Position numbers and translations under genes: made by a program. Positions 4,398 to 62,307 of a DNA stretch of 64,000 bases are shown here, piece after piece (positions within the stretch are counted from its first letter, which is position 1; every line of letters begins with the position of its first letter). Under the pieces are notes generated by a model. That model saw only the letters and a list, made by a program, of their open reading frames with translations. It searched no databases and was not told where the DNA came from. The DNA is from a virus (lineage: Duplodnaviria; Caudoviricetes). Location: IMG/VR virus record IMGVR_UViG_2767802123_000001, positions 1-64,000 of that record. The stretch is one strand, 5' to 3'.

Positions 4398-4892
4398 GTG
4401 GCCGTCGACACCCTGTCACGCCAGGCTCTGCTGGAGGCGAAGCAGGAGGGCGGCTACGCGCCCCGCGTGAAGGTCTGGCCGCCGGAGGGCTACGTGCCGC
4501 CGACGGCCGAGGAGTTTGACACTCTGCGGCAGGCGGCCCGGCGGTACGCCGGGGTGGTCTTCCACCTCACCTACTGGAAGAAGGTGACCGACGACCAGGT
4601 GCTGCGCCGGTACCAGCTCGCCGAGGTGGACGGGCCGGAGGAGCGGGCGGTCTACGCCTACACCCGGGCCCTGCGCGACGAGCTGCGCCGGCGCGGCCTG
4701 GTGCACCGGTCCATCGCCCTCCTGCGGTGCGAGCAGTGCAGCCACGCCACGGAACGCCTGTTCGAGGTGACGCAGGAGACCCACCCCGGGCTGAAGTCCC
4801 CGCGCGGGCCGGTGACGTCCGCCTGGTACTGCGCGCGGTGCTGGAGCGGGGACGACGTCGCCGACGAGGACGAGCTGGAGGACGAGGGATGA
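4398..4892 (+). CDS. Hypothetical protein with CxxC...CxxC motif
   Basis: CEQC...CARC; stop overlaps next ATG. Confidence 0.65.
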   Translation: MAVDTLSRQALLEAKQEGGYAPRVKVWPPEGYVPPTAEEFDTLRQAARRYAGVVFHLTYWKKVTDDQVLRRYQLAEVDGPEERAVYAYTRALRDELRRRGLVHRSIALLRCEQCSHATERLFEVTQETHPGLKSPRGPVTSAWYCARCWSGDDVADEDELEDEG

Positions 4893-5833
4893 CACTGCAC
4901 CTGTTCGCCGGGCCCGGCGGCATGGAGGCCGGAGACGGCAGCGCGTCCATCGGCATCGAATACGACGACGACGCGGTGGCCACTCGTCGCGCGGCCGGGC
5001 TGGCCACGGTTCACGGCGACGTGACCGACTACGGCCCCGCCGACTTCTCCGAGGACGACACGCTCGCCGGTGGGCCGCCGTGCCAGACGTTCACCGTCGC
5101 CGGCCGAGGCGCGGGCCGCCTGCTCCTCGCTCACCTCCAGCAGAAAGCCAAGGCGATGGCCGCCCGTCAGGCCCTGCCGCCGACGCCGCCCGGAACGGAC
5201 GCGCGCTCGCTGCTCGTTCTGGAGCCGCTGCGGTACGTCCTGGCGGCGGCCGACGCTGGGCGCCCGTACCGCGCTGTGGTGTTGGAACAGGTGCCGGGCG
5301 CCCTGCCGGTGTGGCAGACCTACGCGGAGATCCTGCGCGCTGAGGGCTACGCGGCCGTCTGCGGAGTGCTGAACGCCGAGCAGTACGGCGTACCGCAGAC
5401 CCGGCGTCGTGCGGTCCTGCTGGCCCGCAGGGACGGCGCCGTGGCGCTCCCGACCCCGACGCACCAGAAGTGGTCCCGGGGCCGCGTGAGCGGCGACGAG
5501 GGGCTTCCCGCGCCGGTGTCCATGGGTGAGGCGCTGGACCGGCCGGAGCCATTCACCGTGGTGTCCAACTACGGCACCGGCGGGGACCCGCAGAACCGTG
5601 GCCAGCGTGCGAGCACCGAGCCCGCGTTCACGGTCACGGGGAAGATCAACCGTAACCGGGTTGTCGGGCCGGCCGGCGAGGAACTGCCCCGGTTCACCGA
5701 GTCGGAGGCCGGCCGGCTCCAGGGGTTCCCGGCCGACTACCCATGGTCGGGCCGGGGCGTCCCGCAGCAGATCGGCAACGCCTGCCCGACGCAGCTTGCG
5801 GCGGCGCTGTTCCGGGCGGTGCGCTGTGAGTGA
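4889..5833 (+). CDS. DNA (cytosine-5) methyltransferase
   Basis: Motifs LFAGPGG, GPPCQ, EQV, PQTRRR, QQIGNA. Confidence 0.9.
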   Translation: MTLHLFAGPGGMEAGDGSASIGIEYDDDAVATRRAAGLATVHGDVTDYGPADFSEDDTLAGGPPCQTFTVAGRGAGRLLLAHLQQKAKAMAARQALPPTPPGTDARSLLVLEPLRYVLAAADAGRPYRAVVLEQVPGALPVWQTYAEILRAEGYAAVCGVLNAEQYGVPQTRRRAVLLARRDGAVALPTPTHQKWSRGRVSGDEGLPAPVSMGEALDRPEPFTVVSNYGTGGDPQNRGQRASTEPAFTVTGKINRNRVVGPAGEELPRFTESEAGRLQGFPADYPWSGRGVPQQIGNACPTQLAAALFRAVRCE

Positions 5834-6233: not shown

Positions 6234-6296
6234 CGACCGAGCAGCACCTCCACCGAAACCCCGGAGCCGTACGCGGCCCGGGGCTTCGTCGTGTCC

Positions 6297-10555: not shown

Positions 10556-11359
10556 TCACGGCGTGAGCCGGCCGATCTTGGCAGCGAGGGACGCCACCTG
10601 CTTGGCCAGCTCCAGGCCGCGCTCATGGTCGGCCTCCAGCGCGTCGGTAACGACCGTGCCGCGCAGGGCCTTGTGTGCGACGCGCAGCGCGGCCAGGCCC
10701 TGCTCCAGCCGCACGATGGCCAGGGCCTCCTGCGGGGTGTGTTCGGTCGGCAGGTCTGCGGACCCCTCGTCCTCCTCGGCCGTCTGCGCGGGGATGTAGT
10801 GGAGCCGGTGGGCCGCTTCCTTGATGGTGGCGGCCGTCACCTTCGCCCCGGCTTGCTTGACCGCCACGACGACCTCCCGCACGGCCTCCTCGCCGTGGGC
10901 CTCCAGGACCGGGGCAAGGGCGCGGGCCTGCGACTCCACGGGTGCCGTGTCGAAAATTTTAGACAGCAGGTTCATCGTCGGGGCGGCGTCGATGAGCTGA
11001 TAGGCGCGGGAGCGGTCCATGTCCCACCGGTCGCTGATGTACTGCTCGAACGTCTCGTGAGTGACCTTGTAGAGCCCGCCGTCCTCGTCGCGAATCGCGC
11101 GCAGGGCTGTCCCGGCCTCCACGACGAACCGGGCGCGGGCCGCCTTGAGGGAGTGACTAGCCGCTTCCTTCGCCTCGTCGATGGCCGCCTCGAACGCGGC
11201 CAGGCGCTCCTCGGCCGTGCCGGTGACGGTGGCCGGGTCGAGCACCTTCGGGGCGAACGGGTCCGGCGTCGTGGCCGTCGCGCTCGCGTGCCGGGCGCGC
11301 AGGACGTCGGACAAGCCGGGAGCGCGCCCGGGGGCGGGAAGCTGCTTGGCGGGGCTCAT
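10556..11359 (-). CDS. ParA-associated DNA-binding partner (non-canonical ParB-like)
   Basis: Coupled downstream of parA; TFEQYISDRWDMDRSRAYQLID HTH-like segment. Confidence 0.6.
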   Translation of the reverse strand: MSPAKQLPAPGRAPGLSDVLRARHASATATTPDPFAPKVLDPATVTGTAEERLAAFEAAIDEAKEAASHSLKAARARFVVEAGTALRAIRDEDGGLYKVTHETFEQYISDRWDMDRSRAYQLIDAAPTMNLLSKIFDTAPVESQARALAPVLEAHGEEAVREVVVAVKQAGAKVTAATIKEAAHRLHYIPAQTAEEDEGSADLPTEHTPQEALAIVRLEQGLAALRVAHKALRGTVVTDALEADHERGLELAKQVASLAAKIGRLTP

Positions 11360-12150
11360 CGGTCGATCACCTCGGCGATGGACCGGTACGCCTTGGCGTG
11401 CTCGGACTCGGGCGCGTAGTCGACGGGTGTGCGCCCGTACCGCCACGCCTCGGTGATGACGACGCCCAGGGGCACCGTAGCGAGGACGGGGAGGCCATCC
11501 AGTGCCCCGAACTCCTTCAGCACGGACTGGGCGAGCAGGCTCGGCGGACGTCGTAGCCGGTTGACCACCAGGCCGTGCAGCTCCAGCGGCTTGGTGCGCA
11601 GGTCGGCGTCCACGGAGGCGACCTGAGGCAACAGAAGTTCCAGGGCCTTGAGGCTGGAGTCCTCGGCCTCCACGGGGATGAGCACGCCGTCGGCGGCGGT
11701 CAGCGCGTTGTCGGTGAGGATGTCCAGGGAGGGCGGGGAGTCAATGAGCACGTGGTCCCAGGCACCCCGTGCTGAGGCGAGCAGCTTGGCCAGCCGCTGC
11801 TCGCGGGCCTTGACCTTGTCGACGTCGCGCACGGCCATGAACATCTCGAACGCGTTCGGAACGACGTCGATGCGGCCGGCGGGCTCGGAATGCGTAACGG
11901 CGAGGTCCGCTACGGGACCGGTGAACTCGCCGACCAGCGACCGGTAGAGGTTGGGCGCACCGTCGCCGGACGGCGCCTGCGGGACCTTGAGTCCGTCAGT
12001 GAGGTGGCCCTGCGGGTCCAGGTCGACAACGAGGACGTTGCGGCCCATCTCGGCGAGCGCCCCGGCGGTGCCGAGGGTCGTGACGGTCTTGCCGACCCCG
12101 CCCTTCTGGTTGGTGACGGCGGTGATGCGCGTGGTGGTGGATGCATCCAT
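11356..12150 (-). CDS. parA: ParA/Soj family partition ATPase
   Basis: NQKGGVGKT, DLDPQG, DSPP motifs. Confidence 0.92.
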   Translation of the reverse strand: MDASTTTRITAVTNQKGGVGKTVTTLGTAGALAEMGRNVLVVDLDPQGHLTDGLKVPQAPSGDGAPNLYRSLVGEFTGPVADLAVTHSEPAGRIDVVPNAFEMFMAVRDVDKVKAREQRLAKLLASARGAWDHVLIDSPPSLDILTDNALTAADGVLIPVEAEDSSLKALELLLPQVASVDADLRTKPLELHGLVVNRLRRPPSLLAQSVLKEFGALDGLPVLATVPLGVVITEAWRYGRTPVDYAPESEHAKAYRSIAEVIDR

Positions 12151-43307: not shown

Positions 43308-43359
43308 GGCACGACGAAGCCCCGGGACCTGTGGTGGAGTCCCGGGGCTTCGTCGTGCC
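43308..43359. terminator. 21-bp perfect hairpin between convergent genes
   Basis: GGCACGACGAAGCCCCGGGAC / GTCCCGGGGCTTCGTCGTGCC. Confidence 0.75.
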
Positions 43360-45424: not shown

Positions 45425-46510
45425 GTGACGATCATGACGGCGGCAGGGGCCGGCACGATCGCGGCCGACGGGAACGTGGCGCTGCGCACCGTGCTGGGCC
45501 TGCGCGAGAAACTGGGCACGGTCGCTCCGCGCGACCCGAAGAACCGCCGGCTCGGACCGCGCGTCCACCGGCTCGACCTCCTCCACGAGCTGTGCGCGCC
45601 GGAGACGTTCGAGCACGTCGTGGGGTGGCTGAACTCCGAACGGCTCACCAGCAACGGCACCCGGCGCGAGTACGCCGACGACGTCCGCCACTGGGCACGT
45701 GCTGCCCGGGAGCTGGTTGGCACCGAGCCCTTCTACCTCGGGGCGATCACCTCCGATGTGATCCCGGCGTGGCGCGCGTGGACCGGGGACATCGGGCTCG
45801 GGCCACGGCGGGTCAACCGCCTGGCTTCGTCGCTGACTTCGCTCATCGAGTACACCAAGTTCCGCACCCGGCTGGAGATCATCAACCCGATCACCAGGTA
45901 CGACCGGCCGGTGATCGACCCGCACGACGAGACGTCCATGACGCCGATCCTTGAAGTGCCGGAATTCCAGGCCGTGGTGGAGCAGGCGCAGACCCCACGT
46001 CAGGCCCTCGTGCCGGTGCTCATCTACACCCTGGCCGGCCGTGTCTCGGAGTGCTGCGCGGCCGGCATGCACCACATGAAGCCGTCCGGCGGGGAGTGCA
46101 AGCTGGACCTGACCCGCAAGGGCGGCAAGGGCCGCGTGTTCACTCTCCCGCCGAAGCTGTGTGAACTCGGGGCCGTGTGCTGGCAGGGCCGGACCTCCGG
46201 GCCGCTGCTGCTCGATGACGACGACCGGCCGATGGACCGGCACGCGGTGGACCGGCTGTTGAACCGCCTCGGCCGCGCGGCCGGTGTGCTGCCGGGCCGG
46301 GACCTCACTCCGCATGTCCTGCGGGCCAGCAAGCTCACCCACATGTACGACCAGGGTGTGAAGCCCGACGACATCCGCCGGTTCGCCGACCACAGCCAGG
46401 TCGCCACGACCATGCGGTACATCAGGCGCCGGGACGATGAGGCGCTGAAGCGGACACACGCAGCGGCGGCCGTGAAGGTCTACGAGGGTTTGGTCGACCG
46501 GTTCTTGTGA
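45425..46510 (+). CDS. Tyrosine recombinase (Xer/resolvase-like)
   Basis: GRVSE, RKGGK, HVLR, ADH, TTMRY catalytic set. Confidence 0.92.
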   Translation: MTIMTAAGAGTIAADGNVALRTVLGLREKLGTVAPRDPKNRRLGPRVHRLDLLHELCAPETFEHVVGWLNSERLTSNGTRREYADDVRHWARAARELVGTEPFYLGAITSDVIPAWRAWTGDIGLGPRRVNRLASSLTSLIEYTKFRTRLEIINPITRYDRPVIDPHDETSMTPILEVPEFQAVVEQAQTPRQALVPVLIYTLAGRVSECCAAGMHHMKPSGGECKLDLTRKGGKGRVFTLPPKLCELGAVCWQGRTSGPLLLDDDDRPMDRHAVDRLLNRLGRAAGVLPGRDLTPHVLRASKLTHMYDQGVKPDDIRRFADHSQVATTMRYIRRRDDEALKRTHAAAAVKVYEGLVDRFL

Positions 46511-51118: not shown

Positions 51119-53152
51119 TCACCCGATCGTGCGGGCCGCCGTGGCGAGACCCTTGGACGACGTCGTGCCGGTCATCGTCGGCTTCACGATCCGCTGGTGC
51201 CAGGCCGGCCACACCATCGCGTCCAGCCGGTCCGGTGACCAGTCCAGCTCGTCGTACCAGGTGCACATCTGGTCCTCCAGCTCCGGGAATTCACCCACCA
51301 TGTGCCACCGGCCCTGCTCGGACAGGGCCGATACCGGCTCCGCGCGCACCTTCTTCCCCCGCGTCGCGCGCACGGTCTTGATGGGGATGCGTACGCCCAT
51401 CGCGTCGGCGGCGGCCCGAATCGTGTTGACGGCCATGTCCCCGCCGAAGTTGACCTCTACGCAGATGTCGTCCGCGTCGTAGTCGACGGCTGCCTGAACT
51501 GCGCGCCGGCCCCACCCGTCCGGGGACAGGTGGCACGAGCGGTCGGCGAGGACATGGCCGTGGGCGAGCTGCGCCGGGCGGCCGTCGGACCGGACATGCT
51601 CCCGCATCGCCTTGCCCACGACGACAATGCCTTGTTCGCCCCGGCCGCCCGAGGGGTCCACGCCGACGGAAATCCGTGCAAGGTCTGGAAGATCGGCTGG
51701 GCGCAGCCGGTGGGCGTCGATCACCGCGCGGGTCCACAGCGCGTTCTCGTCCTGGTCGATGATCTCGGCGTGCAGCTCCTGGCGGCCGATCTGCGTGCTG
51801 CCGTAGGCGTCCTCCAGCGCGGCCTTGATGTCCTCGGGCAGGTGCGGGTTGTCGTACATCGACGCCCGGGTGCGCACCACGTTCTCGACCCCGCCGGACG
51901 CGAGTTTCTTGATCAGCGCCCGGGGCTTCGGCGTGGTGGAAGCCACCCAGTGCGGCCGGGGGCCGGTGCGCAGACCGAAACGCATCTGGTCCCACGTGTC
52001 GTCCAGGTACCGCCAGGCCGCCAACTCCTCCAGCCACGAGAGGCAGTTGGAGACGAGCAGGTCACCCGCGAAGAACTCGTGATCGTGCTCAACCGTCAGG
52101 TCGTACACGCGCGCGGCGCGACTGATACGCGAGGACCGAAGTGCACCGGCGCGAACAGGCGCGGGTCGGCTTACGGACTTGGCACTCAAACGTGTCGCCG
52201 CACACGCAGCACACCCGTTCCTCCCGTGCTCGTGACGCATCCGCACGGCACTTCGGAGAGCAGTACCGCGCTGCGACCGTGCCCCGGGACTGGAAGGAGG
52301 CCCCGCAGCGCTCACACTCGAAACTTCGGTAGACCGCGCGGGCCCACTTTGTCTGGCCGCCCCGGCTGCGCTCCTCGGGGGTGAGATTACCCCCTCGCTT
52401 GCTCCCGTCTTGTTCCATGTGAGAACACTATCAAGTGGCCCGACGAGTAAAGCGGGCTTCCAGCCGTCGGCCGTCGCTACCTTGTGATCCGGGGTGAGCC
52501 ACGTGAACCCCGCGCCGTGGTCGTAGCGCACCACGTCCTTCACACCGTTGTCCCAGACCTCCAGTACGGTGCGCAGTCCGTTGCGGGTCCACACGCGGTC
52601 CCCGGGCCGGACGGTCTCGATGTGCCGCTCCCCGTGCTCGGTGCGCACCAGCGTGCCCTCAGCCACGCACCTGTTACCGCCGGACCGCAGGCGCTCGACG
52701 CTGCCAGGGCTGTCGGCGCCGAACAGCTTCGCCTCCGAGCCGTTGGGCCAGCGGATGACCGTGCCGCCCTGGACGGTCATCATCCGCGCCTCGGGGCTGT
52801 GCACCCGGAGCCCGGAGGGACCGGCGTAGCAGGACGTCGCCGCGTCGCCGAGGGTCGGCGCGATGATGCCTATCCAGTGCGGGGTGGGGCCGGGCAGACA
52901 CGGCGGGCCCATGACGTGCTCGTGGACGTACCGTGCGCAGGCGTCCGTCTTGCCGGCGCCACGGCCGGCGAGGAGCAACCAGCCGTACCAGTCGCCCTCA
53001 GGCGGGACCTGGTGGGGCAGTGGAGTCCAGCGCGGTTCGGACAGCGTGCGCGCGTGCATCAGCAGACGTTCGGCCGCCGCGCGGCTCAGCATCCGGTCCA
53101 CCATGGAGGTCATTGTCGGTGGAGCTGCGGCCGTTGCTTTCCGGAGCGCCAC
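51119..53152 (-). CDS. terL: Terminase large subunit containing an intein
   Basis: AGRGAGKT Walker A, WLEE Walker B, VGVDP, SPDRLDA nuclease motifs. Confidence 0.92.
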   Translation of the reverse strand: MALRKATAAAPPTMTSMVDRMLSRAAAERLLMHARTLSEPRWTPLPHQVPPEGDWYGWLLLAGRGAGKTDACARYVHEHVMGPPCLPGPTPHWIGIIAPTLGDAATSCYAGPSGLRVHSPEARMMTVQGGTVIRWPNGSEAKLFGADSPGSVERLRSGGNRCVAEGTLVRTEHGERHIETVRPGDRVWTRNGLRTVLEVWDNGVKDVVRYDHGAGFTWLTPDHKVATADGWKPALLVGPLDSVLTWNKTGASEGVISPPRSAAGAARQSGPARSTEVSSVSAAGPPSSPGARSQRGTALRSAVRMRHEHGRNGCAACAATRLSAKSVSRPAPVRAGALRSSRISRAARVYDLTVEHDHEFFAGDLLVSNCLSWLEELAAWRYLDDTWDQMRFGLRTGPRPHWVASTTPKPRALIKKLASGGVENVVRTRASMYDNPHLPEDIKAALEDAYGSTQIGRQELHAEIIDQDENALWTRAVIDAHRLRPADLPDLARISVGVDPSGGRGEQGIVVVGKAMREHVRSDGRPAQLAHGHVLADRSCHLSPDGWGRRAVQAAVDYDADDICVEVNFGGDMAVNTIRAAADAMGVRIPIKTVRATRGKKVRAEPVSALSEQGRWHMVGEFPELEDQMCTWYDELDWSPDRLDAMVWPAWHQRIVKPTMTGTTSSKGLATAARTIG
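52046..52669 (-). mobile_element. Intein (208 aa) in TerL
   Basis: Starts CVAEGTLV; TPDHKV block B; VYDLTVEHDHEFFAGDLLVSN/C end. Confidence 0.9.
52089..52418 (-). CDS. Overprinted Zn-finger protein inside the intein (alternate frame)
   Basis: Two CxxC-N-CSxxC units; TGaTAGTGT extended -10 located 6 nt before ATG. Confidence 0.7.
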   Translation of the reverse strand: MEQDGSKRGGNLTPEERSRGGQTKWARAVYRSFECERCGASFQSRGTVAARYCSPKCRADASRAREERVCCVCGDTFECQVRKPTRACSRRCTSVLAYQSRRARVRPDG

Positions 53153-53263: not shown

Positions 53264-54370
<1,107 letters not shown>

Positions 54371-55352: not shown

Positions 55353-56435
55353 TCACAACTCCAGCCACAGCGGGTTATCGAGAGACCAGCGCACGGTGGT
55401 CTCTATGGACTGCTCCAGCGGCACCGGGGGCTTCCAGCCGAGGGAGGCGAGCCGCGCGCCGTCCAGGGCGTAGCGCAGGTCGTGGCCCGGCCGCGAGGCG
55501 TGGAAGGAGATGGGTTCGATGAGGTCGTCCACCCCGGCGGAGTCCATGCCCATCGCGGCGCCGACCAGATGCACTAGCTCGATGTTGTCCACCTCGCGCT
55601 CGCCGACGATGTTGTACCGCTCGGGCCGGGTGAACGCGCCGTCCCGGTACTGCGCCGGGCCCATGGCGATACGTATGTGCTCGCCGCTCAGCGTGGTCAC
55701 GTCGGGCTCGTCTTCGGTGTACCGGCGCGTCAGGAACAGCCAGGCGTCGGCCAGGTTGCGCGCGTGCAGGTAGAACCGGGAGCCCGGGGTTCCGTCGGGC
55801 GCGGTGTGCACCATGATGGACCGGCCCGCCCGCAAACTCTTGATGATCTTCGGCAGAAACTTCTCCCCGTCCTGCATTTCTCCGATCACGTTCATCGTGT
55901 TGGTGAGGACGACCGGCACGCCGTAGGTACGCCAGTAGCTGACGGCGATGGACTCCTGCGCCGCCTTGCTCGCCGAGTACGGGTTCGACGGCACAGCTGG
56001 CTCCCACTCCGTGTGCCGGTGCTCGCCGTAGGCCGGGCCGTACACCTCGTCCGTGGACATCTGGAGGAACAGCCGGGGCTCGATGGCCCGCGCGACCTCC
56101 AGGACGTTCAGCATCAGAGCGACGTTGTTCTGCACGAACGGCACCGGATGGGATATCGAGCGGTCCACGTGCGACTCGCTCGCCACGTTCATGACGACGT
56201 CGCAGCCGCCGAACTGGTGCAGCGTCAGCGGGTCGGCCGGGGACCGCATGTCCCAGTGCACGATGTCCACGCGGTGCGACCAGTCGGTGTCGCACACGGC
56301 CGAGGCGATCCGGGCCGGCAAACCCTTGTGGTGGAAGGAAACCGGGCAGACGATCTCCCAGTCGGTGTGCGTCAGCAGGTGGCGCAGGACGTGGCTGCCG
56401 ACGAACCCCGACGCACCCGTGAGCAGAACGCGCAT
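55353..56435 (-). CDS. dTDP-glucose 4,6-dehydratase-like (RmlB) SDR
   Basis: TGASGFVG, ASESHVDRSI, STDEVYG, PYSASKA, RPGHDLRYALD. Confidence 0.88.
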   Translation of the reverse strand: MRVLLTGASGFVGSHVLRHLLTHTDWEIVCPVSFHHKGLPARIASAVCDTDWSHRVDIVHWDMRSPADPLTLHQFGGCDVVMNVASESHVDRSISHPVPFVQNNVALMLNVLEVARAIEPRLFLQMSTDEVYGPAYGEHRHTEWEPAVPSNPYSASKAAQESIAVSYWRTYGVPVVLTNTMNVIGEMQDGEKFLPKIIKSLRAGRSIMVHTAPDGTPGSRFYLHARNLADAWLFLTRRYTEDEPDVTTLSGEHIRIAMGPAQYRDGAFTRPERYNIVGEREVDNIELVHLVGAAMGMDSAGVDDLIEPISFHASRPGHDLRYALDGARLASLGWKPPVPLEQSIETTVRWSLDNPLWLEL

Positions 56436-56601
56436 GGCCACCCATTTCCTCGGTCCCTGATCCGTGGGCCGGATGGTAGCCAGGGGCGGGGAAATCGCCG
56501 AACACGCAGGAACCGCCCGGTGCGGCGCCGGGCGGTTCCTCAAGCCGAGGCGGTGCGAGCGCACCAGCCGTCCCAGGTGTCGTACCCAGACGGCCGGCCG
56601 G

Positions 56602-56856
56602 TTACTCGGTGGCGAGCTGGTCCTGCATGGCCGCACTGTAGGCGCGCTCGATGTAGAGCACCTCCTGCTCGGTGCCGTTGGCGTAGTCGTTGCGGAGCTG
56701 GTTCAGGGCCGCCTCCAGGTACGGCTGGAACAGCTCGAACGCCTCGCGCCGCCCCGCGTTGTCCGTCCGTACGGTGATGCTCACGGGCAGGTTGTCGCTG
56801 GTGGCGAGCGAGTAGGTGACGCTCGCCGTGGTGAAGCCATCGGTGGGAAGGGGCAC
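56602..56856 (-). CDS. Hypothetical protein
   Basis: AGGAGG RBS before GTG. Confidence 0.6.
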   Translation of the reverse strand: MPLPTDGFTTASVTYSLATSDNLPVSITVRTDNAGRREAFELFQPYLEAALNQLRNDYANGTEQEVLYIERAYSAAMQDQLATE

Positions 56857-57596: not shown

Positions 57597-58367
57597 CTAC
57601 AGTCCGCAGCGCGTGGCGAACGCCCCGACCACGACCCACTGGTGCCAGCGGAACAGGATCTCCGGGTCGTGCCATCCGGCCGCTGTGATCGAGTGAATGA
57701 GCGTGTCCTGCGGGTGCGGTATGAGGACCCCGCGCAGCGCCCGGGACTTGGCCCGGATGCCGTCCGGGGAGATGCCGTGCGAGGCCTTCCAGTCATGCGA
57801 GGAGTCGGTGCTGATCTCATGCCACCGGGAGTCCAGCGGGCGGACCTTCTCCGCGACGACGAGCGCCCCCGTCTCACGGGCAGACATCCGCGCCAGGTGC
57901 AGTGCCCCGACCCGCTCACGTAGCGGCAGGAACTGGAGCGTGAACAGGCACAGCGTCAGGTCCGCGTCCGTGTGCTGGAGCGGCGGTTCCTGAATCGGCG
58001 CGTGCACGTAGTCGATGCGCCGTGCCGGCACCCCGGCCAGATTCTCAGCGGCCCGGTCCAGCATCGGTTTCTCGATGTCGTACAGCACGGCCGACAAGTC
58101 CCGGTGCGCCTGGCGCTGGAGGATGGCGCCTACCGTGGTGCCAGTAGCTGCCCCGAGGTCCGCCACCAGGCCGCCCTGTGGTACGAGCCAGTCCGACAGG
58201 CCCGCCACCAGGTCCTGAATCGCGTCGTAGAACGGAACGGACGCGCGCACGTGGCTGTCGAACGCGTCGACCACGTCCGGGGTGAACGCCCAGGCGCCAG
58301 CGGTGAAGGACTCAGCCACGTCCCGGTACACAGGTGTCTCAGCCGTAGAGTCGTCGGTGTTCGGCAC
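57597..58367 (-). CDS. cmoA: CmoA-like carboxy-S-adenosylmethionine synthase
   Basis: WAF...VRASVPFY, DLGAATG, LFTLQFL, LVVAEK, HDWKASHGIS match the CmoA pattern. Confidence 0.8.
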   Translation of the reverse strand: MPNTDDSTAETPVYRDVAESFTAGAWAFTPDVVDAFDSHVRASVPFYDAIQDLVAGLSDWLVPQGGLVADLGAATGTTVGAILQRQAHRDLSAVLYDIEKPMLDRAAENLAGVPARRIDYVHAPIQEPPLQHTDADLTLCLFTLQFLPLRERVGALHLARMSARETGALVVAEKVRPLDSRWHEISTDSSHDWKASHGISPDGIRAKSRALRGVLIPHPQDTLIHSITAAGWHDPEILFRWHQWVVVGAFATRCGL

Positions 58368-59745
58368 GGTAGTACCTCGCAGGGTCTGGAAGGGTTTCAC
58401 TGATCACGGTCTTGAGGCCCAGGCCGTCCTGGAACGCGACCTTGGCCCGGGTGGTGACGGACTCGGGGAGCCGGCCCCGGTACGCGCGCTGGAGCACAGC
58501 CTTCGGCCGGGCCTTACCGTCCTGAACGGCGTGCCGGGGCAGAGACAGCGCGAGGTCTACGACGTCCGGGTCCAGAAACGGCAGGCGACCCTCCACGCCG
58601 TGAGCCATGAACGCCTTGTTGACACGGGGGAAGTTGCGCCGGGCCTGTGCAGCGATCAGGTCCCGGCGGTAGGCGTACCAGTCGGCTTTCGCCAGCCCGT
58701 GGTAGGCGAACCCGTAGCTGGCCCACAGCTCGTCACTGCCCTCGCCGCTGTACGTGACCTTGAAGCCGTCGGAGCGGATGGCCCGCGCGAGGGCGAGGCA
58801 CGGCCACGCGATCTCGACCTGGGCCTTGTACTCCAGCTCCACCTGCGCGACGACGCGCGAGAGGTCGTCCGCCGTCGGCGGCGGGATGTCGACCTCCACC
58901 AACTTGGCGCCGATCATCTCGGCCGTTTCCCGGGCGCAGCGCAGGTCTCGTGACTTCGGGTCCAGGCGAGCGGTGTAGCAGACCAGGTCCGGGTAATGCC
59001 GCTTCAGCTCCAGCGCGATGGCGGCGGAGTCGATGCCGCCGGACAGCAGGGAGCACACCGGAACATCTGCGATAGCCCGCCGGTCCACGGCCCGCTCCAG
59101 CGCCCCGGCGAGAGCGTCGGCCGCGTTGTCCAGGGTCCAGTCGGCCGGGTGCGCGGTGAGCCGGTGGAAGGCCCGCCGGGAGGTGGCGCCGCTGGTTGCG
59201 TCCGTGCTCCACCACTCCCCTGGGCCGACGTCCATCACGGCCGGGCCGCAGCGACGACCGAGTGCGGTGAACGCCTTCAGCTCCGAGGCGTAGAGCACCG
59301 GCCGGGCCCGGTGGACGTGCAACGGGATCTCCCCGTGCCGGTCACGCGCCGCGTGCAACACGCCAGGCTCCCGGTCGTCCGTCCACACCAGGGCGAACAT
59401 GCCGTCCAGGACGGGCAGCGCGCGAGCAGGGCCGAGGACAGCCAGGGCTGCCGCCACGACCTCCGTGTCGCCGGATGTCTGCCAGGTGCGGCCCGGCTCC
59501 GCACGTTCGACCATTCGCCGCACGGCGCCCGCGTTGAACAGCTCCCCGTTGTAGACGAGCAGCACCGGGCCGTCGCGGTACGGCTGGTCGGACCGTTCCT
59601 GCGGGTCCTGGACCGCCAGCCGAGTGTGCCCGAGGGTGCAGCCGCCGGACTCCGCGACGGCTGACGCGTCCGGGCCCCGGTGTGCGAGAGCGGTAACCGC
59701 CCGGCCGAGGTCGAGATGCCCGGCGGCGGCGACCAGACCGCACAT
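58339..59745 (-). CDS. Asparagine synthetase B-like glutamine amidotransferase
   Basis: MCG N-terminus, HRGPD, YNGE, LLSGGIDS, SGEGSDE, RLPFLD. Confidence 0.9.
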   Translation of the reverse strand: MCGLVAAAGHLDLGRAVTALAHRGPDASAVAESGGCTLGHTRLAVQDPQERSDQPYRDGPVLLVYNGELFNAGAVRRMVERAEPGRTWQTSGDTEVVAAALAVLGPARALPVLDGMFALVWTDDREPGVLHAARDRHGEIPLHVHRARPVLYASELKAFTALGRRCGPAVMDVGPGEWWSTDATSGATSRRAFHRLTAHPADWTLDNAADALAGALERAVDRRAIADVPVCSLLSGGIDSAAIALELKRHYPDLVCYTARLDPKSRDLRCARETAEMIGAKLVEVDIPPPTADDLSRVVAQVELEYKAQVEIAWPCLALARAIRSDGFKVTYSGEGSDELWASYGFAYHGLAKADWYAYRRDLIAAQARRNFPRVNKAFMAHGVEGRLPFLDPDVVDLALSLPRHAVQDGKARPKAVLQRAYRGRLPESVTTRAKVAFQDGLGLKTVISETLPDPARYYRAEHRRLYG

Positions 59746-61088
59746 CAGATCGCCCCTGCCTCACGCAGCGGCACGAGGATCCGGTCCCGCACTGTGGCGG
59801 CGATGTGGGACATCATCACTGGCGGCACGGCCCGGCCGATGCGCTCCCAGCGCTGCGCGTACGTCCCGGTGAGCACGAAGTCGGCCGGGAACCCGCCGAT
59901 AGCGCGCAGCTCCTGAAGCGTCAGCTTCCGGGCCTCGGTCCAGTGTGTCGGACCTGTGAAACCCGGGCCGCCTTGCCCCTGTGCAGCCATCACCGTGTCG
60001 TACGGCCGGTCCGGGTGCTGACGTCGGACGTGAAAGTACCTCTGCGATTTCTCGCCGGGCCGTAGCTTCTCCCAGTCGTCCCCGATGGCGTACCCCTTGA
60101 TGGACAAGGCCTGGCCGGTCTCCGGGTCGTGGGTGACCGGTTCCGCCTCGCCGCGCACTTGGTAGTGGCATGCGCTCGTGGCTGTTCCGCCTACCGTGAT
60201 CGCTGGTGACGGTTTGTCCGTCACGTCACCTGCGCTGAACTGGCCGGACGTGTCGTGGAACACGCGGGGCTCCGCGATGACCCGAGACGGCGGGAAGTTG
60301 CCGTTCCCGGTGCCGGGGTCCGCACCGATGGTCGGGGACGGCTGGTCAGCCGCGCGCATGGACCCGCCGCCGAACCCGCCGTTGTCTCCCTGCGCGAGGA
60401 TCCACGGCAGTGCGTCCCGCACGGTGTACTGGTACGGCAGCGGGCCAGGGTGCACCGGGTCCATGCCGAGGTCTTCGCGCACGCCCACGAAGATGAGCCG
60501 GTTGCGAGACTGCGGGACGCCGAGCCACGAGGCGTCCAGCACCCGGGCGGACACGCGGTACCCGCACGCGCGCAGCCGGGCCAAGATCAGCTTGAAGTAT
60601 CCCTTGGCCGTGCCCCGGACCAGCCCGGCGACATTCTCAGCGACGAACACCCGGGGCTGCGTCTCCTCGATGAGTCGGGCGTACTCAAAGAACAAGTCGT
60701 CCGTACGTTGCTGGGTGTCGCTGTACTTCTTCACCTGGCCCCAGCCGGCCTCACGCTTGCCGGCCGTGGAGAACGAGGCGCACGGCGGTGACCCGTCGAA
60801 CAGGTCGATCTCCCCGACGCCGAGGCCGCACGCGTCCAAGACGTCCTGCCCCTTGACCTCCCGGATGTCCCGGGTGTCCAGCACGGTATGCGGCGCTGCA
60901 TTGGCACGGTAAGTGTCCTGCGCGGCGGGGACGAACTCAGAGGCCCACAGCATTCTGAAGCCGGCCATGCGGTAGCCGAGGGACGACCCGCCGCACCCGC
61001 TGAAAGTCGACACGGCGTTGAAGCCGTTCCACGACAGCGCCCGGATCTCCTCCATGGACGGGACGCGGTACGGGGGCTTGTCGGTCAC
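59745..61088 (-). CDS. C5-cytosine methyltransferase-family enzyme, probable carboxymethyltransferase
   Basis: FSGCGG, SPPC, ENV, PQSRNR; motif X reads RIGRAVPP. Confidence 0.85.
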   Translation of the reverse strand: MTDKPPYRVPSMEEIRALSWNGFNAVSTFSGCGGSSLGYRMAGFRMLWASEFVPAAQDTYRANAAPHTVLDTRDIREVKGQDVLDACGLGVGEIDLFDGSPPCASFSTAGKREAGWGQVKKYSDTQQRTDDLFFEYARLIEETQPRVFVAENVAGLVRGTAKGYFKLILARLRACGYRVSARVLDASWLGVPQSRNRLIFVGVREDLGMDPVHPGPLPYQYTVRDALPWILAQGDNGGFGGGSMRAADQPSPTIGADPGTGNGNFPPSRVIAEPRVFHDTSGQFSAGDVTDKPSPAITVGGTATSACHYQVRGEAEPVTHDPETGQALSIKGYAIGDDWEKLRPGEKSQRYFHVRRQHPDRPYDTVMAAQGQGGPGFTGPTHWTEARKLTLQELRAIGGFPADFVLTGTYAQRWERIGRAVPPVMMSHIAATVRDRILVPLREAGAI

Positions 61089-61699
61089 CGGGACTTCCCC
61101 GACCACTCGTACCCGCACTTGGGGCACCGGTGCTCGGTCTCGATGTCCTCGTCATAGGACGGGAACTCCGTAGGTGGCACCGAGGCGGGGACGGCGGTCG
61201 CGTCGAACTCGGGTGTCTCCGCCTGCTGGCCGAACAGGTCGGCCTCGCTCACCTCGTAGCCTGTGCCCACCAGGTCGTCGTCCAGGGAAGCGAGCAGGGC
61301 CGCCAGGGCCTCGTCGTCGTAGTCGCCGTCGTCGGCCGACTTGTTGTCCACCAGGTTGATGCGCGTGGCGGTGTCGTCGTCGCACTCGATGAGGTGCGCG
61401 AGAGCGGTCGGGTCGTCGGCGTCCACGTTGATGCAGAGCTGGCACGGCCGGTTGTGCGTCAGCTCCCAGTCCTGGCACGCCTCACGGCCGGACTCCTCGT
61501 GCCGCAGCAACGCGAGGTACGTGTGGTTCCCGGCGAGGATCGTCAGCTCCTCGCCCTGCCGGCGCACGGTGAGCGGCTTGTACTGGCCGTTGGCCCGGAG
61601 GCTGTCCAGGATCACGTCCACGTTGCCCCGGCGCGCGTTACCGGGGAACGGGGTGAGATCTTCCAGCGAAACCTGTTCGGTTCCGACGGTCGTGGTCAT
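61085..61699 (-). CDS. ParB/Srx N-terminal-domain protein with C-terminal Zn ribbon
   Basis: LTPFPGNAR...SLRANGQYKPL...ILAGNH; CPKCGYEW. Confidence 0.8.
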   Translation of the reverse strand: MTTTVGTEQVSLEDLTPFPGNARRGNVDVILDSLRANGQYKPLTVRRQGEELTILAGNHTYLALLRHEESGREACQDWELTHNRPCQLCINVDADDPTALAHLIECDDDTATRINLVDNKSADDGDYDDEALAALLASLDDDLVGTGYEVSEADLFGQQAETPEFDATAVPASVPPTEFPSYDEDIETEHRCPKCGYEWSGKSR

Positions 61700-61821
61700 C
61701 GCGGCCCCTTCGCCTGGTCGACGGACGCGGCGATGTTAAGACCGGAGCAGCCCATGATCATTCCGGAGTACGACGAAGCCCCGGGCCGTGAGGCTCCGGG
61801 GCTCGGTGGTTCATCGGGCGG

Positions 61822-62307
61822 TCAGTCGTCGGTCGGTGCACTCGACTCGGTGAGCGGGGCCAGGTGCTCTTTGCAGTTGCTGCACCGCTGGACCGCCATA
61901 CGTGGATGGGGTTCGAGGGTGACCGGGCCGCACGTAGGGCAGACGGCTTGGATTGCACCGTCCACGTCGCCGCACTCGTCCACGTCGCCGGGCGCACCCG
62001 GCATCGTCAGTTCTCGGCACGGCTTGCTGTGAGCCGCGTGGCCGCAACCCCGGCAGACTCCTGCCGCCGTGGTCCCGCCCGGGATGGCGACGCCCCGCAT
62101 GAACGCGAACAGGTCCGCCTTGCACCCGGGGCACAGCTCCCGCTCGTCGGCGGAGCCGTCCTCGTTGGGGAGCCGGGGCCGCGTCCAGCCGTTCGGCAGC
62201 TCGGGCCGGGCCACCGGGATCCCGGGACCGCAGGTGCCGGCGAACAGCATCACGGAACCCGTCTGTTCCTGGAACCCGCAGCGGTCACACTCCAGATGGA
62301 CGCTCAC
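61822..62307 (-). CDS. Cys-rich hypothetical protein
   Basis: Multiple CxxC; GTGA coupling. Confidence 0.65.
   Translation of the reverse strand: MSVHLECDRCGFQEQTGSVMLFAGTCGPGIPVARPELPNGWTRPRLPNEDGSADERELCPGCKADLFAFMRGVAIPGGTTAAGVCRGCGHAAHSKPCRELTMPGAPGDVDECGDVDGAIQAVCPTCGPVTLEPHPRMAVQRCSNCKEHLAPLTESSAPTDD

Follow-up and report, generated by a model that had tools for sequence, protein, structure and literature searches.

The closest characterised system to the one described here is the CmoA-CmoX-CmoY pathway of Synechococcus phage S-B43 (Yang et al., Nat Commun 2025;17:281; PMC12783734, December 2025). In that phage CmoA makes carboxy-S-adenosylmethionine (Cx-SAM), CmoX (SpCmoX; PDB 8YF3), whose Arg350 holds the carboxylate, forms 5-carboxymethylcytosine at GC, and CmoY, the only CmoY tested, ligates glycine. 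Wild-type SpCmoX accepts Cx-SAM only. The glycine amide was found in S-B43 virion DNA, where the acid was fully converted, and modification of this type was shown to confer resistance to HhaI. The same study listed 5,615 CmoX candidates, recognised by an SPPC motif together with R350 and frequently accompanied by ParBc neighbours, and noted that the glutaminase domain of the second-largest ligase cluster, represented by A0A7T0Q3R0, suggests the use of glutamine-derived ammonia (PMC12783734). Here we describe a four-gene cassette at positions 57597-61699 of IMG/VR record IMGVR_UViG_2767802123_000001, a Caudoviricetes contig of 95,726 bp whose first 64 kb form the window. We read the cassette, with a probability of about 0.68, as a CmoA-CmoX-CmoY-type operon for the hypermodification of phage DNA, with 5-carbamoylmethylcytosine as its end product.

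The four overlapping genes all lie on the minus strand, in the order that an earlier sequence-only reading had given. The first encodes a ParB-like (ParBc-type) accessory protein (61085-61699; 204 residues; PHROG 723, E 2e-38), the second a predicted CmoX-type DNA cytosine-C5 carboxymethyltransferase (59745-61088; 447 residues; PF00145, E 1e-53), the third a predicted AsnB-like ATP-dependent amide ligase (58339-59745; 468 residues; GATase and Asn_synthase domains) and the fourth a predicted CmoA-type Cx-SAM synthase (57597-58367; 256 residues; TIGR00740, E 1e-25, below cut-off). All four frames are open and intact, with a GC content at third codon positions of 0.87-0.93. The transferase has a GTG start that overlaps the stop of the ParB-like gene, the transferase/ligase junction is TGATG, and the CmoA GTG at 58367, with its GAGGT Shine-Dalgarno sequence, gives a 29-bp overlap with the ligase, the same as in Streptomyces phage TurkishDelight. 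These junctions place the starts at 61699, 61088, 59745 and 58367 respectively, those of the transferase and CmoA being revised from 61127 and 58400.

The best sequence match of the transferase in the PDB was SpCmoX (8YF3; E 5e-60), followed by M.HaeIII (1e-23). Its AlphaFold model (mean predicted local distance difference test score, pLDDT, 80) had 8YF3 as top Foldseek match, with a template modelling score of 0.81 by target length. The SPPC motif, S100-P101-P102-C103, is invariant in 60 homologues, and motif X reads RIGRAVPP, as noted in the sequence-only reading, with Arg419 aligned to R350 of SpCmoX; judged by sequence, the transferase carries both features by which CmoX candidates are recognised in print. 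The residues with which SpCmoX contacts the adenine and ribose of Cx-SAM (F25, E47, F48 and D69) correspond to F29, E51, F52 and D74. The protein is 60.7% identical to TurkishDelight gp123. An ordinary C5 methyltransferase encoded outside the cassette (4727-5833, plus strand; PF00145) served as internal control and keeps QIGNA in motif X, again as first observed. Two C5-methyltransferase-like genes of the host (G000:C13:123350-124291 and G000:C23:70334-71413) have His or Asp in place of the motif-X Asn.

Co-occurrence of the motif-X arginine with cmoA, which had been proposed as a check, was examined in 56 CmoX clusters at <90% identity, S-B43 and TurkishDelight included, with flanks of about 4 kb. 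Arginine was found in 54 clusters, all 54 with cmoA in the locus, and asparagine in two, neither with cmoA. Around 71 ordinary AsnB-like loci used as a control, CmoX or cmoA was nearby in none. In two loci, L117 and L123, the transferase belongs to the CmoX clade but has Asn in motif X, and cmoA is missing; these transferases are possible natural revertants to methylation and would be useful as controls. The proposal that CmoA supplies Cx-SAM to an Arg-type transferase that makes 5-carboxymethylcytosine gains support from the S-B43 homologues, for which both steps were shown (PMC12783734), and by analogy with them the cassette very probably writes this base.

The CmoA-like protein matched PDB entries 4GEK, 4IWN and 1IM8 (profile E 1e-50). 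Its model (pLDDT 90) superposed on E. coli CmoA (4GEK) with Z 29.6 and a root-mean-square deviation of 2.1 Å over 229 residues. The actinobacterial natural-product methyltransferases CysG and BelI were close behind in fold (Z 27-28), and structural similarity by itself therefore does not establish CmoA function. The protein missed the cut-off of NCBIfam TIGR00740, the bacterial tRNA-modifying equivalog (90.7 against 193.3 bits), and we class it as a phage-type CmoA and not as the bacterial equivalog; it is 27.7% identical to SpCmoA and 65.5% to TurkishDelight gp125. A role in making the tRNA base uridine 5-oxyacetic acid (cmo5U) is not favoured, as its operon partner is a DNA transferase; no search aimed at cmoB was made. 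No second CmoA-like gene was found elsewhere in the genome, and since the host has no other cmoA the phage would have to supply its own. The host encodes chorismate mutase.

AsnB (1CT9) matched residues 19-447 of the ligase with E 4e-40. The glutaminase residues Cys2, N66-G67-E68 and Asp93 and the SGGxDS PP-loop (S235-S240) are intact, and 16 clusters, with identities as low as 34%, retain both (one of them is truncated at its start); the ammonia-producing half thus appears to be under selection. In AsnB, Arg325 binds aspartate. AsnB positions 322, 323 and 325 (Thr, Thr and Arg) read Ala, Gln and Glu in the ligase, Glu311 standing at the Arg325 position as in SpCmoY, and since this position is Glu in both enzymes the acceptor is predicted not to be aspartate. 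K307, A308, Q309 and E311 are invariant in the 16 clusters. The equivalog cut-offs were also missed (TIGR01536, 249.8 against 267.1; PRK09431, 231 against 499), and an ordinary asparagine synthetase was rejected on the loss of Arg325, these scores and the context.

Over 468 residues the ligase is 74.6% identical to A0A7T0Q3R0, above the network threshold of about 30% used by Yang et al., and an exact look-up identified A0A7T0Q3R0 as gp124 of TurkishDelight. We assign the ligase to a glutamine-dependent CmoY subtype with an intact N-terminal glutaminase domain, and class the cassette as an intact new copy of the published CmoA-CmoX-CmoY system, belonging to the subtype for which amide formation has been predicted in print. 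The glutamine-dependent amidation put forward in the sequence-only reading agrees with the published prediction for this cluster. Its suggestion that an AsnB-coupled version in an actinophage might be new does not hold, because the published representative comes from a phage with the same four-gene order.

Several observations weigh against the amide reading and against parts of it. The CmoX relatives are kin and not independent samples, so the counts of arginine and cmoA are not independent either. In E. coli CmoA, Arg199 is the sole residue contacting the carboxylate (PMC4482062); in the phage protein Ser208 occupies that position, and Arg212, four residues further on, lies just beyond the end of a helix in the model. 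Together with the missed TIGR00740 cut-off and the similar folds of CysG and BelI, the absence of Arg199 would suit a CmoA-like protein that is a small-molecule methyltransferase, next to a transferase that is an ordinary methyltransferase or inactive. We regard this as very improbable. SpCmoA, which is biochemically active, also lacks an arginine at position 199, having Glu instead, so phage enzymes can work without an arginine there; Arg212 is common to SpCmoA and the protein described here. Among 51 phage CmoA clusters, an arginine follows the invariant Lys207 at +1 in 6, at +5 in 11 and at +9 in 29, with both +5 and +9 in four and none in one. One of the three positions is thus occupied in 50 of the 51, and +1 never occurs with the others. 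This distribution looks like a catalytic arginine that has migrated within phage CmoA, with Arg212 as a candidate substitute for Arg199 and Arg209 also in play. The caveat of the sequence-only reading about a shifted carboxylate-binding arginine was therefore correct as to the residue, and is mostly removed by the comparisons with SpCmoA and the phage CmoA clusters. An ordinary methyltransferase is further opposed by the exclusive use of Cx-SAM by wild-type SpCmoX and by the linkage of the arginine to cmoA across relatives.

Other adverse points concern the last step. Among the 54 Arg-type clusters, 17 had a glutaminase-type ligase, seven a glutaminase-less type and 30 no ligase in the fetched flanks, which would make amidation optional in the family. 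The A0A7T0Q3R0-type ligase was not obtained in soluble form, and no activity was shown for it (PMC12783734). Both points fit the alternative that 5-carboxymethylcytosine is the final base and the ligase is inefficient on DNA or acts on another substrate. That outcome seems improbable to us, given that the ligase, where present, lies between CmoX and cmoA, its gene overlapping or adjoining theirs, and that the acid was fully converted in S-B43 virions. Somewhat less unlikely, although still doubtful, is that 5-carboxymethylcytosine is made and the ligase joins it to another nucleophile, for example an amino acid, a polyamine or hydroxylamine, the glutaminase being vestigial or serving another step. 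Glycine is the substrate of the only CmoY tested, the ligase segment at AsnB 322-325 resembles SpCmoY, and the presence of the hydroxyamidotransferase 7YLZ among the AsnB-fold PDB matches of the ligase points to a versatile fold. However, the glutaminase residues are kept across clusters 34-75% identical, as expected if glutamine is still hydrolysed, and the glycine-carboxylate-binding residues were assigned to the other ligase cluster and not to that of A0A7T0Q3R0 (PMC12783734). Overall, 5-carbamoylmethylcytosine is the likely product.

The remaining adverse observation is the complete avoidance of several GC- or CG-containing sites in the phage, which shows that any protection would be partial. 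Observed against expected counts were 0/100 for CCGCGG, 0/37 for GAGCTC, 0/22 for CTGCAG, 0/15 for CTCGAG and 7/66 for CAGCTG; GTCGAC, GGCGCC and CGGCCG were at or above expectation. The pattern is common to a close relative (G002), whereas TurkishDelight-type phages keep CCGCGG and GAGCTC. The cassette itself has no copy of either site, compared with 9-15 and 4-9 in TurkishDelight-type cassettes, so selection against both sites acted on the cassette too. The comparison, which involves two lineages and is confounded with host range, suggests that some GC or CG positions are left unmodified. The purging of five such sites argues against a blanket GC shield, and the enzyme probably recognises either a narrower target than the plain GC used in S-B43 or a different one. 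Counts of 4- and 5-letter words gave no cassette-specific signal for the target. A tendency for palindromes with G-N-C to be kept was post hoc and too weak to claim.

Because HhaI resistance was shown for the S-B43 type of modification (PMC12783734), some protection from nucleases is likely here, and the probable purpose of the cassette is to shield the packaged genome against some of the nucleases of the host. The sequence-only reading had proposed anti-restriction armour; as a general claim this gains only partial support, given the purged sites. These sites also provide a testable prediction of what the CmoX described here does not protect: CCGCGG, GAGCTC, CTGCAG, CTCGAG and CAGCTG would remain open to cleavage in the phage DNA, and GTCGAC or GGCGCC may be protected.

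The pathway proposed for 5-carbamoylmethylcytosine would begin with CmoA making Cx-SAM from SAM and host prephenate, as shown for homologues. CmoX would then flip a cytosine out of a short target, Cys103 attacking C6 and Arg419 holding the carboxylate of Cx-SAM, to yield 5-carboxymethylcytosine in double-stranded DNA after replication, as shown for SpCmoX. In the third step, which has been predicted in print, the AsnB-like enzyme would adenylate the carboxylate with ATP while Cys2 releases ammonia from glutamine, giving 5-carbamoylmethylcytosine. The ParB-like protein would act as an accessory. It is 49% identical to TurkishDelight gp122 and ends in a CxxC zinc-ribbon-like C-terminal tail, and it gave no match to Pfam ParB_N. 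A ParB-like match, often to the C-terminal tail only, was found near CmoX in 83 of 89 loci. No ParB-CmoX fusion was present in the loci checked, and fusion was set aside as grounds for inferring that the two proteins bind.

CmoX has a variable region of 186 residues (112 in SpCmoX), made up of three modules. Two of these, residues 229-273 and 274-311 (60156-60404, minus strand), are extra, and both carry a P-x-x-T/A-I motif; they are possible additional target-recognition modules. Neither TurkishDelight nor the closest relative (ligase 91% identical) has module 1, which is nevertheless present at 67-69% identity in two distant viral loci. Module combinations vary widely across 69 CmoX homologues. 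Residues 234-313 have pLDDT <50, and of the three modules the model resolves module 3 only. Multispecific C5 methyltransferases of Bacillus phages also have several repeated, exchangeable variable-region modules; there they are tandem target-recognition domains (PMC8936443), whereas here the modules are known from sequence shuffling. We tentatively raise the idea, which we consider unlikely, that the phage carries 5-carbamoylmethylcytosine at more than one target through a multispecific carboxymethyltransferase whose modules are swapped between phages. If this is true, the base would be one not yet measured in any DNA. The shuffled modules offer a starting point for carboxymethyltransferases directed to new targets.

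The region upstream of the cassette (61701-61830, minus strand; blastn-short against the contig) contains a GC-rich hairpin followed by a TTAA box. The hairpin, at 61764-61804 and directly 5′ of the cassette, belongs to a family of about a dozen copies that sit at boundaries of gene blocks in the phage; other copies lie near 6274, 6820, 10517, 40559, 43311-43356, 46512 and 49129. The region is probably the terminator/promoter boundary of the operon; a promoter scan found no sigma-70-type promoter upstream of the cassette. The cassette adjoins the packaging region, lying just upstream of it, and from this position it is probably expressed late in lytic growth. Other genes on the same strand encode a terminase large subunit with a Hint domain (51119-53152), a transglycosylase-NlpC/P60-LysM protein (53264-54313) and, downstream of the cassette and co-linear in the closest relative, a nucleoside diphosphate (NDP)-sugar 4,6-dehydratase/epimerase-like protein (55353-56636).

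The contig has 99 bp common to both ends and so assembles as a circle. It lies in a Streptomyces assembly of 8.2 Mb and 71% GC, and encodes terminase, portal, capsid and tail homologues together with a ParA ATPase (11356-12150, minus strand) and a tyrosine recombinase (45425-46510, plus strand). The last two genes on a circular contig make a phage-plasmid lifestyle possible, and we infer a plasmid-like or excised temperate phage. No chromosomal attachment site was identified, as phage and host had no homology beyond conserved genes at E 1e-3, a search that a short attachment core would escape. The genus assignment comes from a same-genus match, G192, whose coordinates coincide with those of locus L011 of Streptomyces fuscigenes. 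A search of 400 other genomes of the genus found the ligase in one.

CmoA-like genes also occur in a second setting. In Gordonia phage Evaa (gp2/gp5; L002:702-3952) and at L166:2347-5211, a cmoA about 50% identical to that of the cassette has as its neighbour a ParB-fused class-I SAM-fold transferase (PHROG 5475), and neither record contains a C5 transferase. A cmoA-like match was found near all 19 of 19 related loci of this ParB-fused transferase (L168-L186). It is a candidate non-C5 carboxymethyltransferase, acting on adenine N6 or cytosine N4; Yang et al. found no non-C5 carboxymethyltransferase (PMC12783734).

Compared with the S-B43 system, the cassette has in common a CmoA homologue, a C5 transferase with SPPC and the motif-X arginine, and an AsnB-related AMP-forming ligase. 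The gene order differs, as does the length of the CmoX variable region. SpCmoY is a protein of 271 residues that lacks the glutaminase domain and ligates glycine, whereas the ligase here has 468 residues and includes it; and S-B43 modifies GC, whereas the present phage has purged GC-containing sites. The ligase resembles E. coli AsnB (1CT9) in its N-terminal nucleophile glutaminase and ATP-pyrophosphatase architecture and in its catalytic residues. It differs in its shorter C-terminus, its phage context and the replacement of Thr322, Thr323 and Arg325 by Ala, Gln and Glu.

The nearest relative of the whole cassette is TurkishDelight gp122-125, which has the same four genes in the same order, at protein identities of 49, 61, 75 and 66%, also beside the packaging region. 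In its CmoX, module 1 is missing and module 3 is different, and TurkishDelight keeps the CCGCGG and GAGCTC sites lost from the phage described here. DNA identity is about 74% over ligase-cmoA, but the rest of the genome, in which an integrase and a repressor are annotated, is only distantly related, which indicates that the module has moved between phage lineages. We found no literature naming TurkishDelight among searchable papers, and no report of measured 5-carbamoylmethylcytosine in the searchable literature.

Both the system and the amide prediction have already been published, and the value of the new copy is practical. It provides a second glutaminase-type ligase, 75% identical to the published representative that was not soluble, and it comes from the genome of a Streptomyces isolate. 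This ligase could serve to measure 5-carbamoylmethylcytosine, the cytosine counterpart of the base made by phage Mu. Mu Mom makes N6-carbamoylmethyladenine (PMC13219725). The side chain predicted here would be the same carbamoylmethyl group (+57 Da), added after replication to phage DNA, and the two systems differ in base and atom, in their unrelated enzymes and in the tRNA-dependent chemistry of Mom.

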